Below are positions 2,971-21,299 of a DNA stretch of 28,909 bases, in pieces. The notes beneath the pieces were generated by a model that was not told where the DNA came from, ran no database searches, and saw nothing but the letters and a program-made list of their open reading frames with translations. The stretch is from Candidatus Woesearchaeota archaeon (GTDB lineage Archaea; Nanobdellota; Nanobdellia; Woesearchaeales; DSVV01): NCBI GenBank assembly GCA_016215305.1, contig JACRKI010000006.1, forward strand, positions 1-28,909, in the 5' to 3' direction. Made by a program: the position numbers and the translations under genes. The number at the start of each line of letters is the position of its first letter. The stretch's first letter is position 1.

Positions 2971-2985
2971 ACCAAAAACTTTATA

Positions 2986-3063
2986 CATTTCGAAATACCA
3001 CCGGAGTGTACCTCCGGTGGACAAAGTCCACAATTGAAATTCGATAGGCGGTATTTCGTAATG
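2986..3063 (+). repeat. 78-bp palindromic element A, copy 1
   Basis: Terminal IR CATTTCGAAATACC/GGTATTTCGTAATG, inner hairpin CCACCGGAG/CTCCGGTGG; 59/78 identical to reverse complement of 7829-7906. Confidence 0.85.
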
Positions 3064-3141
3064 TGTCAAGAACCACAGGTCTCTCGAACTAGCAGACCGC
3101 TTCGCTTCATGCCACCGGTCTTTGACCGGTGGTTCTTGACA
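3064..3141 (-). mobile_element. Miniature IS200/IS605-end-like (PATE/MITE-like) palindromic element B
   Basis: 18-bp terminal IR with 1 mismatch (TGTCAAGAACCAC[A/C]GGTC); minus strand reads GTCAAGAACCACCGGTC-AAA-GACCGGTGG, resembling GTCAAnnACC-hairpin ends of IS200/IS605/ISC elements; no ORF. Confidence 0.55.
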
Positions 3142-3190
3142 TTTGAATTATCTTTAGTATAATTATACAAAATATAATTTGGTGAAAACA

Positions 3191-3415
3191 ATGGAATGCG
3201 TCGCAACAACAAGAAAATGGGGTAATTCATTAGGCATTACGCTGCCAAAAGAATTGGTCGAATAAGCACACATCAAAGAAAATGAAGAAATAAAACTTCT
3301 TATTGTCAAAAAAGACCAGAAAGCTGAACGCCTGTTTGGTATGTTCAAAGGGAAAATTGGCGCTTCTGGTCAGGAAATTAAAGATATGATTCGAAAGGAG
3401 CTTCATCATGGTTGA
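3191..3415 (+). pseudogene. AbrB/MazE-type antitoxin with internal in-frame stop
   Basis: GGTGA SD then MECVATTRKWGNSLGITLPKELVE*(TAA 3263-3265)AHIKENEEIKLLIV..ERLFGMFKGK..KELHHG*; not in the ORF track. Confidence 0.8.
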
Positions 3416-5249: not shown

Positions 5250-5413
5250 CTTTTTTGAGAAATTCCCCTTTAAATACTTTTGTTGTATTTCTGGAATAGT
5301 GACGAAAGAATGGTTCAATATTCAGTAGATCGGACTGAAGAAGCAATTTTTTGACCATTTTTCAAAATAATCGTCAAAATAAATAAAAAAAGAGAAGGAG
5401 AAGAAAAAATAAA

Positions 5414-7261
5414 TTAGAATCTAAACACGGTTGTTTGTTGTGGTGCCCTATACTCAGAAACAATGACAGGTGTTTCTATCATTCTTGGAAGCTGTATAAA
5501 CACTTCTGTTCCGAACGCTGGCGCAACAATACTCGTATATGTTCCATCTAATTTTGGAACTCCATCTCCAAATGTATATGCTTTCTGCTCTCTTTTTTTG
5601 TTCATCTCTCGCATCCATTCTGGAAGAGGCGCTCTCTCTGGTTCTGAATGTTGTATTTGATATCTTGCAACTTCCTGCATCCATGCAGGTCCTTTTTCTT
5701 CTACTTTATTGTCAATATCTTCATGAGAAGCGCCTGCTTGATGTACCTTCTTCGCAGTTTTTTGATGCGCTGCTTTTGCTCTATACGGTGTTTCTCCATT
5801 TGATTGTGCAGCTTCTGTTTCTCCATGATATGCTTCAACTACTTGCACTTGCGGCGCATATTTTCCAGAATGGGAATGGCTTTCTACAAAATCTTTCACA
5901 TTCGCACTAAATCCGCTCATCATCGCAGTAAGACCGCCAACTATTGCTCCTGCACTGACAACGGCACCGACAACTGCTGCTGCATATCCTACAGCTACCT
6001 GATACCATGGCGCAGGTTTATAGCTTGTTTCTTGTCTTGTTGCCTTTCCTTTTTCTTCAAGCGGTATTGCATAATACGCTGTACTGAGATGGTTCGTTGC
6101 GGTAAAGAAACGATTCTCTCTCCGTGTAAATGGCATTGCTGGAGAATAGGTCTCTGCAGGAGTTAGTTCTGTTGGACTCTCTACATATTCTTGCGCTGGT
6201 GTTCTTGCTGGTCTTGCCGCTGGAACCCATACTTTGTATTGTACTGGTTCTTCTCTTATTCGAGGAAGCAGTTCTCTGCCTTCTGCATCATAACTTATTT
6301 GATTTGTTGCAAGTGATCTGACTTTTCCTTTTGCATCTCTTTGCACAGGAACAAGTTGTTTTGGAGCATTTGCTTTTCCAGTCTCTCTCAATTCTTCCAC
6401 TAATTGTTCTATGTATGATTCTTCTTGACTTTCTGCAGAAATTTCTTCTTGCGGAGCATACAATACTGCAACGTGCGCTTGCATTTCATCGATATTATCG
6501 ATTGTATATCGCACTTTTGCTTTATACTGTTCAAACATTCCTACGGGTGTTTCTTTTTTCTGCACTGCAAGAAGAGTATACAACTCTCTTTTCACTTTGT
6601 TTCTTGTTCCATTTAGATTTTGATGGACAACTGCTTCTACTCTTTCAGAAAATTCATTTGCAAGTCTTACTTCATTATTTTCTCTTTCAATTTCATCATA
6701 CGCTTTCTTTGCCGCTTTTACGGCATATTTTTTTTGTAATGCTGTTCTGTTTGGGAATACACTCTTTACTGCTTCTTCCAATGGTTCTCCTATTGCAAGA
6801 CGTAATTTTACCTCATCATCTATTCCAAAATGTGATTTTACTTCTTTGTATATTCTTTGTTCTTCTTCTTTTCTCTGTGCGTGTACTCGGCTAACATATT
6901 GCTCTTCCAACGCATCAATATACATTGCTCTTTCTGAAGTGATTCTCCCTGTATACGCACGCATTTCTTCTGTTAATTTCGCTCTGAGCGCTTCTTTACG
7001 CGCTTTTGTGATTATCTTTGTTGGTTCTAAAAGCGCATATTGAGAAATCCAATCCTGATAGACTGATTCCATGTGATCTTTTATAGCATCCCATGTCACG
7101 CGTTCTTTTCGGTTTTTTGGAGCATCCGCTATTACTATTCTTTCTAAAGGAAACTGTTCCATTTCAATTCCTGCTACTGTGCCATCCATTGCCATTTTTG
7201 TTTCACTCTGTTTTTCCCCTCTTTTGAGGATTCTTAATCGTGCGTCGTATGTATTAACCAC
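5414..7261 (-). CDS. Hypothetical single-pass membrane protein
   Basis: 615 aa; helical charged N-half, Pro-rich linker, Gly/Ala-rich TM (VAVGYAAAVVGAVVSAGAIVGGL), short C-terminal beta-rich tail. Confidence 0.8.
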   Translation of the reverse strand: MVNTYDARLRILKRGEKQSETKMAMDGTVAGIEMEQFPLERIVIADAPKNRKERVTWDAIKDHMESVYQDWISQYALLEPTKIITKARKEALRAKLTEEMRAYTGRITSERAMYIDALEEQYVSRVHAQRKEEEQRIYKEVKSHFGIDDEVKLRLAIGEPLEEAVKSVFPNRTALQKKYAVKAAKKAYDEIERENNEVRLANEFSERVEAVVHQNLNGTRNKVKRELYTLLAVQKKETPVGMFEQYKAKVRYTIDNIDEMQAHVAVLYAPQEEISAESQEESYIEQLVEELRETGKANAPKQLVPVQRDAKGKVRSLATNQISYDAEGRELLPRIREEPVQYKVWVPAARPARTPAQEYVESPTELTPAETYSPAMPFTRRENRFFTATNHLSTAYYAIPLEEKGKATRQETSYKPAPWYQVAVGYAAAVVGAVVSAGAIVGGLTAMMSGFSANVKDFVESHSHSGKYAPQVQVVEAYHGETEAAQSNGETPYRAKAAHQKTAKKVHQAGASHEDIDNKVEEKGPAWMQEVARYQIQHSEPERAPLPEWMREMNKKREQKAYTFGDGVPKLDGTYTSIVAPAFGTEVFIQLPRMIETPVIVSEYRAPQQTTVFRF

Positions 7262-7310
7262 TAGTAAGTGGGTACTTATATATAAATGTTATGCAATATT
7301 TTGTCACTTT

Positions 7311-7628
7311 TTAGTGGTTATGATACCAGTCCACTGCTCTTGTTATATGTCCTGCAATTTCTCTTCCTTGTGTTTCCGCAAAGCTATCCCACTGCTCTGC
7401 CAGGAAATCATATCTTCTTGCCACTTTATCTCCTGCTTCTTTTGCCTGCGTTAGGATCCCTTTTCTTTGATAGGGTATGTCATCTCTTCCTTCTGGAATG
7501 TATGCATCTGCTATTCCCGATTCAGCATTTGCATTTCCAAACCATGCATCTTCCATTTCTCCAAACGACTGCACTATATCATCAATTATTCTTTCATCAA
7601 TTATTATTGGACTCGCGCCATCAGCCAT
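7311..7628 (-). CDS. Hypothetical acidic protein
   Basis: AAGGTGAG SD before ATG 7628; 105 aa; co-oriented with the 615-aa gene. Confidence 0.65.
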   Translation of the reverse strand: MADGASPIIIDERIIDDIVQSFGEMEDAWFGNANAESGIADAYIPEGRDDIPYQRKGILTQAKEAGDKVARRYDFLAEQWDSFAETQGREIAGHITRAVDWYHNH

Positions 7629-7828
7629 TTTGCTCACCTTTTTTATGCTCTATTTGAATTAATCTTAGAATAAGTAGCTGGAAACATTATTACTCATTTT
7701 CTGGAAACTGTGGAAACCAAGAGAATTTTATCGTCGAAATATTATCTTTTCTTAATCTTTTATCTTTGTCTTTTCAACAAAAACAAAAGTGTGCCTGAAC
7801 AGCACACAAGCAAACCCTGTGCCTCATA

Positions 7829-7906
7829 CATTGCGAAATTCCAGATTTCATTTTTTGATTGTGGACTTTGTCCACTGGTGAAACACACCAGTGGAATTTC
7901 GGAATG
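7829..7906 (-). repeat. 78-bp palindromic element A, copy 2
   Basis: Reverse complement CATTCCGAAATTCCACTGGTGTGTTTCACCAGTGGACAAAGTCCACAAT...GGAATTTCGCAATG aligns without gaps to 2986-3063. Confidence 0.85.
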
Positions 7907-8004
7907 CTTAAACTTCGTTTATTCATAAAATTTTCTTATCGAATTTCGCAATGTTTAAAAAGGAGTGCTTGTTTCGAAAGGATATTAACACTCATAGGTG
8001 ATTT

Positions 8005-8195: not shown

Positions 8196-8471
8196 ATGGC
8201 ACTTGTTATTATTGAAATGAAAGTCATGCCTGTTTCTCCGGAAACTGATTTGACAAAATTGACACACGATGCTGAGAAAGTTGTCGTTGAATTCGGCGCA
8301 AAAGTGCATCAGCACAAAATCGAACCAGTCGCTTTTGGATTGAAAGCGGTTATTCTAACCATTGTCGCAGACGAAGACAAAGGCTCCACTGACGCCATGG
8401 AAGAAAAATTGACTGCATTGAACCACGTGGAATCTGTCATGGTCACCAGCGTCAGTCGAGCATTGGGATAG
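8196..8471 (+). CDS. ef1b: Archaeal elongation factor 1-beta
   Basis: MKVMPVSPETDLTKL..EPVAFGLKAV..DKGSTDAMEE..VESV. Confidence 0.95.
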   Translation: MALVIIEMKVMPVSPETDLTKLTHDAEKVVVEFGAKVHQHKIEPVAFGLKAVILTIVADEDKGSTDAMEEKLTALNHVESVMVTSVSRALG

Positions 8472-8541: not shown

Positions 8542-10032
8542 ATGATTCAAACGACAGATTTTAACCCCGTAATTGCAGATCCTGTATCTTACTCTCTTGA
8601 AGCACGTATTTCTGGAGCAGTTCACGAACAAAACCCTATTGCTCTTGCGCGGACAAAAGCGCGATTTCTTGTTGATTCTGCCTATCATTCTTTTGAAACA
8701 CAATATACTTCTCAAGAATTTGTTTCAAACTATACTTCTCTCAAACAAGAAAAAGTTGCTTCCTTGAAACAGCAACTAAAAGAACTTCGCGATACTGCAA
8801 CAGACGATGCTTCCAAAAAAGTATTTGACAATTATTATCGTGCAGCACAGCTTCAATTTGCCCAAAAAGAAAAATCACTTGAAAGAACTGTCGCTGTCAA
8901 TTATGCGCAGCCTGCTTCATATCAGTCAGATGAATATCTTTGCTCCACTGTTGTGACTGATCCCTCTTTTGGAAATGTTGCTGGCGCAATTGGCGCTTTA
9001 GGCATTGGCTTTGCGATGGCGGGCAAACGGAAGAGAAAAAAGAATAAGAGAAAAGAGGTTTCTGATAATAATCGTACTCCGCTTCCTGCTGTTGATGATG
9101 AGGTTATTGCAGGAGATGAAGATGAGGATTCAGATGATGCATCTGCTGTTTCAGGAGGAGTAAATCTTTCTCTTGCACGCACTGTTCCCTTAGATGAGAT
9201 CAGGAGTACTGCTATTCATGAAAATATTCTTCCTGAACCAAGCATTATTCATGTTGATGTTGATGCAAATCAAGCTCCCTCTCTTACACAACCATATACA
9301 GGAAGAATATCAGAGGTATACTTGTCTGCATCAAAACCAATTTCTGATTTTGCTGCAGAATCTCCAACAAATCCTGGTGTGCTAGGTACAAATGAAAGAA
9401 GAACTTCTCAAGTTACTGCCGCAATTCCAAGAAAGCCATCATTCTTCTCAAAAGCCGCATTGGCGGTTGGCGGCATAGTTATTGGGGCAGCAAGTGCAGT
9501 AGCTATTTCAGTAGGCGCGGCAACGTATGTTGTACAGCATTCTTCTCCTGAAACTGCTGCTCAAGCAGTATATTCTTCTCCGCAATCTGCTGCTCCGCAG
9601 ACAACCTATGCAAATCCTATTCCTGTTTCACAACCAGCAGCTCCAGTTGTTGAAAGACCACCAAATTTTCGCGGGATTTATTATTTTCCAGAACATGCAC
9701 CAAAAAATGAAACCGGCGGTAAAAAACTTTCTGCTGACTGGTATCAAATAGAACATGCTGCGCAAACTGTAGATTCTTTTATCCTTCAGATTGGCAATGA
9801 TGTTTCTTTAGATGGACGCGTTGCTCGATTTGGTATTGACACTGACGGAAATGGGAAAGCTGACAAAATAATCTATAAATCATTAGATCATCACTTGAAA
9901 TTACCTCTATCAAATGGAGAGACTGTTGTGCATGCAGGATTTGGTGTCAAATCAGATGCTGGATTTACCTATCTCGCTTCTGTTTCAAAAATGTCTGGTG
10001 ACATTCAGTATAGCGTTGTTTCTAAAAACTAG
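8542..10032 (+). CDS. Hypothetical membrane protein with two hydrophobic segments
   Basis: 496 aa; GAIGALGIGFAMAG followed by KRKRKKNKRK and an acidic tract; second TM AALAVGGIVIGAASAVAISVGAA; C-terminal beta domain with DTDGNGKAD. Confidence 0.8.
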   Translation: MIQTTDFNPVIADPVSYSLEARISGAVHEQNPIALARTKARFLVDSAYHSFETQYTSQEFVSNYTSLKQEKVASLKQQLKELRDTATDDASKKVFDNYYRAAQLQFAQKEKSLERTVAVNYAQPASYQSDEYLCSTVVTDPSFGNVAGAIGALGIGFAMAGKRKRKKNKRKEVSDNNRTPLPAVDDEVIAGDEDEDSDDASAVSGGVNLSLARTVPLDEIRSTAIHENILPEPSIIHVDVDANQAPSLTQPYTGRISEVYLSASKPISDFAAESPTNPGVLGTNERRTSQVTAAIPRKPSFFSKAALAVGGIVIGAASAVAISVGAATYVVQHSSPETAAQAVYSSPQSAAPQTTYANPIPVSQPAAPVVERPPNFRGIYYFPEHAPKNETGGKKLSADWYQIEHAAQTVDSFILQIGNDVSLDGRVARFGIDTDGNGKADKIIYKSLDHHLKLPLSNGETVVHAGFGVKSDAGFTYLASVSKMSGDIQYSVVSKN

Positions 10033-20973: not shown

Positions 20974-21299
20974 TTAAAAAAACCAAAAAAATAAATAAAA
21001 ATTATTGTGTTCGCCGGGCGATGCGTGTTCTACCTACGCAGCGAGGTGAATCAAAAGTATTCAGTTCATGAGAAAGCAACGATAAGTGAAAAATAATCTC
21101 ATTTAACCTTTAGAATTGGAGATAATTATACATTTAGAATCCCAAAAGAGTTCACGCAACAGGTGAGCAAAAGAAAAATTGAGATCATTCCTTTGGGCGC
21201 TAAAGAATTTTGTGCGTCTGTGGAATAATAAGGAAATCTAAGAAAATAATGTTTGTGATGAGTAAAACTTTATATATAACTTTATGTTACATGCAGTAT

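Follow-up and report, generated by a model that had tools for sequence, protein, structure and literature searches.

A gene-less 156-bp double palindrome in a Candidatus Woesearchaeota genome with features of a non-autonomous IS200/IS605-type transposon

RESULTS AND DISCUSSION

Two palindromes in a contig of Candidatus Woesearchaeota

The window, by which we mean the whole stretch of 28,909 nt analyzed here, is contig C57 of the metagenome-assembled genome (MAG) G000, a 1.18-Mb assembly in 186 contigs with a GC content of 39% and a completeness of 83%. The host, which comes from groundwater, is archaeal, as marked by the aEF-1beta gene at positions 8196–8471 of the window, and the contigs related to the window are labelled Woesearchaeota or Nanoarchaeota. 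Two copies of a 78-nt palindrome lie in this stretch, one on the plus strand (2986–3063), close to a RelE-like pair (2504–2970), and the other on the minus strand (7829–7906). The copies align without gaps and are identical at 59 of 78 positions. Three base pairs differ between them on both sides (12/67, A-T versus T-A; 17/31, C-G versus T-A; and 20/28, A-T versus T-A), and positions 5 and 74 are unpaired in both (T.T versus C.C), all as an earlier note on this DNA had described. Furthermore, the 15-mer GTGGACAAAGTCCAC occurs exactly twice in the window, against an expectation of 0.02, and both copies fold as single strands far better than shuffled sequences (z = −4.5 and −5.2). The earlier observation therefore concerned a real feature, but one that was seen too narrowly: the palindrome, designated “module A” below, is the left half of a longer element (A+B) that recurs in the host genome. 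The features in the window are as follows.

2980..2985, plus strand: target hexamer TTTATA at the left end of the element, outside the inserted DNA and kept in the empty site of the congener G004 (contig C68)
2986..3141, plus strand: complete element A+B, 156 bp, the mobile unit; exactly missing in G004 between conserved flanks, with a fixed A-to-B order, a depth spike, and loose ends
2986..3063, plus strand: module A copy 1, with a 14-bp terminal stem containing T.T at 5/74, inner hairpin 1, and the hairpin GTGGAC-AAA-GTCCAC; proposed left end (LE)
2995..2998, plus strand: proposed guide ATAC, directly upstream of the LE hairpin, whose foot it overlaps; complementary to TATA in the order known from IS608
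2998..3020, plus strand: LE hairpin CCACCGGAG-TGTAC-CTCCGGTGG, with compensatory changes at 16/32, 17/31, 18/30, and 20/28 among 26 copies
3064..3141, plus strand: module B, a 78-bp palindrome, TGTCAAGAACCAC...GTGGTTCTTGACA; proposed right end (RE)
3112..3141, plus strand: RE hairpin CCACCGGTC-TTT-GACCGGTGG and then the 9-nt tail TTCTTGACA, with which the element terminates; the part best conserved across genera
7829..7906, minus strand: module A copy 2, of the ATTCC subfamily, with C.C at 5/74; solo, without module B
7940..7953, minus strand: truncated module-A arm CATTGCGAAATTCG, 14 nt; adjoins TTTAAA, read on the plus strand as the TATA-like box TTTAAAAA that precedes the Zn-ribbon/aEF-1beta genes

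A bipartite repeat family in the host genome

An iterated nhmmer search of G000 detected 30 loci of the 78-bp module A, together with solo ends and internally deleted relics, so that what had been taken for a two-copy element is a family with approximately 30 loci in a 1.18-Mb MAG. In 23 of the 26 full-length copies, module A is followed directly, in the same orientation and without a spacer, by a second palindrome, module B (consensus yGTCAAGAACCAC...CATGCCACCGGTCTTTGACCGGTGGTTCTTGACr). The earlier view that 78 bp constituted the whole unit must accordingly be given up; the repeat unit is approximately 156 bp long, and copy 1 of the window continues into a module B at 3064–3141. The three other copies, window copy 2 among them, are solo A copies that terminate exactly at AATG. 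Module A occurs in two subfamilies, one with ...GAAATACC and T.T at 5/74, and the other with ...GAAATTCC and C.C. Contigs assembled from the source run provide an independent mark of the same element boundaries: their depth rises from approximately 6 to 80–90 over positions 2981–3165, and unrelated sequence starts at 2980 and 3141. These reads yielded contigs only, among which no joined (excised) form was seen.

Hairpins of the type CCACyrGTs are present at both ends of the element in direct orientation. They are alike, the first lying 12–14 nt from the left end and the other 9 nt from the right end, and each module also has long inverted arms. The generic family shows an imperfect terminal inverted repeat of 8–9 bp (TGTCAGAA / TTCTTGACA). 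At 156 bp, the gene-less element is too short for a transposase gene. Its copies are all intergenic, and their orientation to the neighbouring genes is spread over four configurations (7, 6, 4, and 3 copies). Approximately 0.4% of this tiny DPANN genome consists of this one structured repeat family, and related mosaics take up more; such repeats interrupt the assembly of MAGs and might be taken for RNA genes in error. Other repeat families adjoin the element copies, with the motif GTATCTTCATG preceding five of them, and nested units also occur. In four copies (G000:C22:21194–21480, C40, C143, and C14), A+B is enclosed by a larger repeat with the inverted ends AGAGArytTTGAA; these units have the appearance of small elements that became nested and now travel as one.

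Structure and covariation

When the structure proposed in the earlier note was laid on the alignment of 26 copies, 94.4% of the cells were paired, compared with 36–44% when the partners were slid. Eight pairs had changed on both sides, none of 500 shuffles reached the observed covariation score, and RNAalifold recovered the same helices. These results uphold the proposition that the pairing is under selection. The core hairpin GTGGAC/GTCCAC, in contrast to its earlier description as invariant, itself covaries within the family (GTAGAC/GTCTAC, GTGAAC/GTTCAC). At the other end of the element, the RE hairpins of 55 cross-genome copies comprised 28 distinct inner stems, with 460 Watson-Crick, 18 G.T, and 7 A.C pairs. 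In our own count on the A-to-B strand of module A in the 26-copy analysis, there were 27 G.T pairs versus 8 A.C pairs. An excess of G.T over A.C suggests that one particular strand, the A-to-B strand, is the one that folds; in this MAG of 186 contigs, the asymmetry is the sole, and an indirect, sign of strand-specific activity.

Empty sites in congeners

Orthologous loci in congeners were compared in search of sites without the element, as the earlier note had proposed, and one such site was resolved to the base. The congener G004 carries the relE-like and abrB-like genes in the same order, without exactly positions 2986–3141: its spacer reads ...AAAAACTATTTATA|TCAGTTATCTTT..., where the window has ...AAAAACTTTATA[156 bp]TTTGAATTATCTTT.... 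Because TTTATA is kept in the empty site, the hexamer is the target and not a part of the element. On the same ground, a promoter reading, in which the TATA box belongs to the element, was rejected. There was no target duplication at the empty site of G004:C68, the one base-precise site, and a family-wide scan found no flank-to-flank identity beyond the subfamily structure, in agreement with what had been reported for the two window copies. The best signals of the scan proved to be covariation, by subfamily, of the flank with the element’s own end and not duplications. For a second copy, at C22:21258, what G002 lacks is a larger nested unit that contains the copy and has inverted ends of its own. 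The sites on C112, C26, and C153 also have counterparts without the element in congeners, in spacers too diverged or rearranged for base-precise boundaries. These observations indicate that the element behaves as mobile DNA and not as a gene-linked RNA.

The same comparisons bear on the suggestion, also made earlier, that the palindrome might be a small RNA or a switch. If the copies were small structured RNA genes or cis-regulatory RNAs, their covariation would reflect RNA folding, and the covarying stems, the mutually exclusive hairpins, the strong fold z-scores, and the TATA-like hexamer before every copy would all be in keeping with this. However, the hexamer is the target and pre-exists in the empty site, and a transcript starting approximately 25 nt downstream of it would begin within hairpin 1. 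Moreover, the orientation of the copies to the neighbouring genes is random over the four configurations given above, copies are often truncated, and they are present in one congener and missing in another. A scan of the window against Rfam 15 at the gathering threshold matched two tRNAs only. We therefore consider it very unlikely that the family consists of RNA genes or regulatory RNAs.

Directly downstream of the element in the window, an AbrB/MazE-like ORF (3192–3265) reaches a stop after 24 codons where its G004 homologue reads on. This ORF may be a decayed antitoxin gene beside the RelE-like pair at 2504–2970.

Target preference and pairing of the flank with a putative guide

Left ends with a clear first hairpin were taken and near-identical flanks removed; the 39 left ends that remained were independent and came from 36 contigs or loci. 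Their left flank has the consensus T(−6) T(−5) n A(−3) W(−2) A(−1), i.e., TTnAWA. In 38 of the 39 left ends, flank position −2 and the base directly preceding the CCAC foot of the hairpin were Watson-Crick complements (22 A-T, 15 T-A, and 1 C-G; the last was T.G). None of 5,000 permutations reached this value, where it should be noted that permutation values overstate the independence of the copies because those within a subfamily share ancestry. Three further C-G cases had the flanks caca, gaca, and taca with ...ATG|CCAC. Target and guide correspond in the same 5′-to-3′ order in all of the combinations, namely TATA/ATAC, TAAA/ATTC, AAAA/TTTC, and nACA/ATGC. For copy 2 of the window, the flank on the element strand is TTTAAG (plus strand, 7907–7912), which matches the guide ATTC.

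The right flank, used as a control at 60 sites, was unconstrained. At the right end of the element itself, the majority class, CATG|CCAC... with the tail GACA, fits the guide rule; guide covariation was not seen there among the 55 cross-genome copies, in which the triplet varies (ATG, ACG, or ATT) and the tail GACA is constant. The target TTnAWA resembles an archaeal TATA box, and owing to this likeness insertions land beside promoters. Target choice by guide–target pairing is thereby put on a comparative footing, with three Watson-Crick states in many genomes, for a gene-less element of an uncultured archaeal order.

The absence of duplications and the form of the target also bear on whether A+B could be one or two ordinary MITEs, mobilized by a DDE transposase through recognition of the 13–14-bp terminal inverted repeats of A and B. 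Each module does have clean terminal inverted repeats, the solo A copies end precisely where module A ends in AATG, and the genome has four DDE_Tnp_1 matches and one rve match. However, the ends of all five of these loci are unrelated to A or B, no target duplication occurs at the empty site or family-wide, and neither the complementarity of flank and guide nor the excess of G.T over A.C would be expected if terminal inverted repeats were recognized in double-stranded DNA. We give this explanation very little chance of being correct.

Spread among relatives

The last 35–42 nt of module B are 90–97% identical across genera and families, and the conserved 35-nt right end can serve as a simple marker for tracing the element. 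The pattern CAAGAACCAC-N45-70-GTGGTTCTTGAC was present in more than 112 contigs of the species collection, essentially all of them from Woesearchaeota or Nanoarchaeota, plus one labelled Aenigmatarchaeota. A similar module-B pattern was found in 46 of the 401 genomes sampled from the order, representing 40 of 257 genera, and its reversed control in none; the B pattern had no match in viral contigs. In other genera, module A differs in sequence and in length (43–110 nt) but keeps its plan, the common arrangement being a TGTCrGAAA-arm, one or more hairpins, an arm-TTTCyGAGCATG, and then module B. The spread of the element in Woesearchaeota is thus wide but patchy. Full-text searches of the literature returned nothing on such repeats in Woesearchaeota.

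Transposase candidates

G000 has one Y1 transposase gene (C153:1212–1643), which is intact and encodes 143 aa. The product, TnpA, is an IS200 equivalog (112 bits versus a cut-off of 55) and falls below the cut-off for REP_Tyr_transpos (33 bits versus 80). The gene is flanked by hairpins of its own, CCCCGCCCC-TT-GGGGCGG. Before its left hairpin, this IS reads GAAAATACC, compared with GAAATACC in module A, so that the two share GAAA(A)TACC at this place. Approximately 60 nt upstream, there is a candidate left end, CTCTATG|CATTTG, and module A begins with CATTTCG after TATG or TATA; the IS would thus have a TATG target and, like module A, start with CATTT. This link of the element to the enzyme is suggestive and not proof. 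The hairpin stems and the right end of the IS differ from those of A and B.

The earlier note had named tnpA, RAYT, TnpB, or IscB genes flanked by the motif as something to look for, and none were found: A/B motifs were absent beside the Y1 gene of G000 and at 37 TnpA loci of relatives. A near-match at locus L147 was located inside a coding sequence and was dismissed as chance. Order-wide, Y1 genes were present in 56 of 151 sampled genomes and TnpB in 7. A Y1 gene accompanied the element pattern in 11 of 19 pattern-bearing genomes, compared with 45 of 132 other genomes (odds ratio, 2.7; one-sided p, 0.04, uncorrected for kinship). Among the 41 nearest relatives, 8 had both the element and TnpA, 8 the element only, 8 TnpA only, and 17 neither; TnpA was thus undetected in 8 of the 16 element-bearing relatives, whose MAGs are incomplete. 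A TnpB/omega-RNA reading was rejected, since PF07282 had no match in G000 and so few genomes of the order carry TnpB.

With TnpA undetected in half of the element-bearing genomes, TnpB as rare as 7 in 151, and element ends only loosely like those of the local IS200, the element might be the substrate of an as yet unrecognized hairpin-specific recombinase or nuclease, either another kind of HUH enzyme or a novel protein that element-bearing Woesearchaeota have in common. On the other hand, no candidate gene was identified, the MAGs are incomplete, and known Y1 chemistry already explains the target–guide logic, and this possibility appears distinctly unlikely. A bolder proposal also builds on the half of the carrier genomes that show no TnpA: rather than passive relics of IS200, the A+B elements would be an autonomous kind of “double-palindrome” mobile DNA in DPANN archaea, directed to TATA-box-like hexamers by DNA–DNA guide pairing and moved by an enzyme other than the canonical TnpA. 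We hold this to be unlikely; if it were true, A+B landing beside promoters could rewire transcription in reduced genomes.

Two solo hairpin units that are almost identical to the right end of the G000 IS200 (ACCCCGCCCCTTGGGGCGGTTGGGAGATTCATTT) are present in G004, at L217 (G004:C138, approximately 9870–9915) and at L218 (G004:C120, approximately 235–275). G004, which carries these two units, has no detectable TnpA.

Comparison with known systems

In IS608, recognition of the tetranucleotide at the cleavage and target site falls not to the protein but to 4 nt located 5′ of the hairpin foot, with which it pairs. The left cleavage site is 19 nt away from the foot of its hairpin, the right one is 10 nt past its hairpin, and the element inserts 3′ of its target without duplication (PMC3201880). 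A+B shares with IS608 the insertion 3′ of a specific short sequence without duplication, a target complementary, in the same 5′-to-3′ order, to the bases 5′ of the left hairpin foot, a right hairpin approximately 10 nt from the right end, the stem irregularity, and the strand asymmetry. In contrast to IS608, A+B has no internal transposase, its left spacing is 12–14 nt rather than 19, its right-end guide pairing lacks covariation, and its target is a 6-mer resembling an archaeal TATA box.

Palindrome-associated transposable elements (PATEs) of Haloquadratum walsbyi are derived from IS605-type transposons (PMC3119063). They have no terminal inverted repeats, and they are characterized by near-terminal palindromes, absence of duplication, a 4–5-bp 5′ targeting sequence, and a longer spacing at the 5′ end (PMC3119063). 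Common to PATEs and A+B are similar near-terminal palindromes at both ends, the lack of target duplication, a short 5′ targeting sequence, a palindrome set farther from the end on the 5′ side than on the 3′ side, core deletions, and nested arrangements involving other small repeats. A+B differs in that each half is a long palindrome with 13–14-bp terminal inverted repeats, which are absent from PATEs by definition, in that no parent IS with the same ends was found, and in that the host is a DPANN archaeon. Its terminal inverted repeats are a likeness to the SMR-A repeats of the same Haloquadratum paper, which are approximately 110 bp long and have strong inverted ends, no duplication, and an unexplained mobilization (PMC3119063). 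The PATEs of Haloquadratum are the closest described systems, and A+B mixes traits of PATEs and SMR-A.

A further comparison is with the bacterial REP, BIME, and REPIN repeats associated with RAYT (TnpA-REP), which, like A+B, are high-copy extragenic palindromes that form inverted doublets and mosaics, and which share with it the probable handling by a Y1 HUH enzyme acting on hairpins (PMC8266576, PMC3733652). On such a reading, the family would be domesticated, i.e., structured DNA maintained by the host, spread and kept by a single-copy RAYT-type transposase, and serving in termination, mRNA stability, or DNA topology. The many intergenic and mosaic copies adjoining other repeat families would fit, as would the single Y1 transposase gene of the genome. 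The Y1 protein, however, scores as an IS200 equivalog and well below the REP_Tyr_transpos cut-off, and the hairpins that flank its gene are its own and not A or B, so that a repeat-flanked RAYT-type gene is missing. Neither a GTAG nor a CGTC tag appears in the alignment of 26 copies, and at 78 + 78 bp the units exceed the 20–40 bp of a REP unit. The patchy distribution (46 of 401 genomes) suits a parasite better than a host function, and the defined insertion target and the empty site point to ongoing transposition, unlike in REP, BIME, or REPIN repeats. Domestication of this kind is improbable here.

We favour, with moderate confidence, the interpretation that the A+B family is a non-autonomous, PATE-like transposon of the single-strand IS200/IS605 type in DPANN archaea. 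Module A would then be the left half of a 156-bp gene-less element that belongs to, or imitates, the IS200/IS605 “peel-and-paste” class. One DNA strand of A+B would fold, and a Y1 HUH transposase (TnpA), supplied in trans, would bind the near-terminal hairpins CCACnnnnn/nnnnnGTGG, of which the one in module A begins 12–14 nt from the left end and the one in module B stops 9 nt short of the right end. The 3–4 bases just 5′ of the left hairpin (ATAC, ATTC, TTTC, or ATGC, depending on the subfamily) would pair with the final nucleotides of the target (TATA, TAAA, AAAA, or nACA), and through this pairing the element would be cut and pasted 3′ of TTnAWA without target duplication. As extra features, the family has the long outer stems of both modules and the mismatch conserved at 5/74. 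Whereas the copy number, the covarying stems, the single base-precise empty site, the preferred target, its complementarity to the bases beside the hairpin, and the patchy distribution are observations, the single-strand mechanism and the identity of the enzyme are what we infer, the mechanism by analogy with IS608. The earlier note’s proposal of a REP/PATE-type substrate for a HUH Y1 transposase gains in substance from the insertion 3′ of a short target without duplication, the target–guide pairing, and the IS608-like hairpin spacing. The proposed mechanism is borrowed from a known family, and the comparative evidence for a putative guide-directed targeting of TATA-like hexamers is neat.

Observations at neighbouring and related loci

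Copy 2 of module A sits at the right edge of a stretch of approximately 2.6 kb (window 5320–7949) with the ORFs 5414–7261 and 7311–7637, both on the minus strand; in G001, G002, and G004, the same flanking genes enclose nothing that corresponds to this stretch. In the adjacent spacer upstream of the Zn-ribbon/aEF-1beta genes (window 7907–8004; L184, L185, and L186), a different palindromic element is present in G001 and in G002, which gives the spacer the appearance of a hot spot for insertions. On the lower strand of G001, G002, and G004, CATTG precedes the TATA-like box TTTAAAAA and may be an old remnant of module A.

A region of G000:C22 (approximately 21020–21200; L190:17830–18010) contains at least three ORB-like boxes (GAGTTCCAyAGGAAAt..GGGGTT), which are conserved in G001:C4 and G002:C12, and this region is probably a replication origin. 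Beside the boxes, in G000 only, lies a copy of A+B nested in a larger inverted-repeat element. For the element itself, readings as an integron attC site, an H/ACA RNA, or an ORB box were rejected, since core motifs, copy number, and orientation do not fit. Positions 1–1142 of G002:C22 are 100% identical over 1,142 bp to G000:C22:19812–20953, in genomes that are otherwise 70–80% alike; this identity could stem from mis-binning, a recent transfer, or shared strain DNA. A copy of A+B on the same G002 contig is 95% identical to copy 2 of the window.
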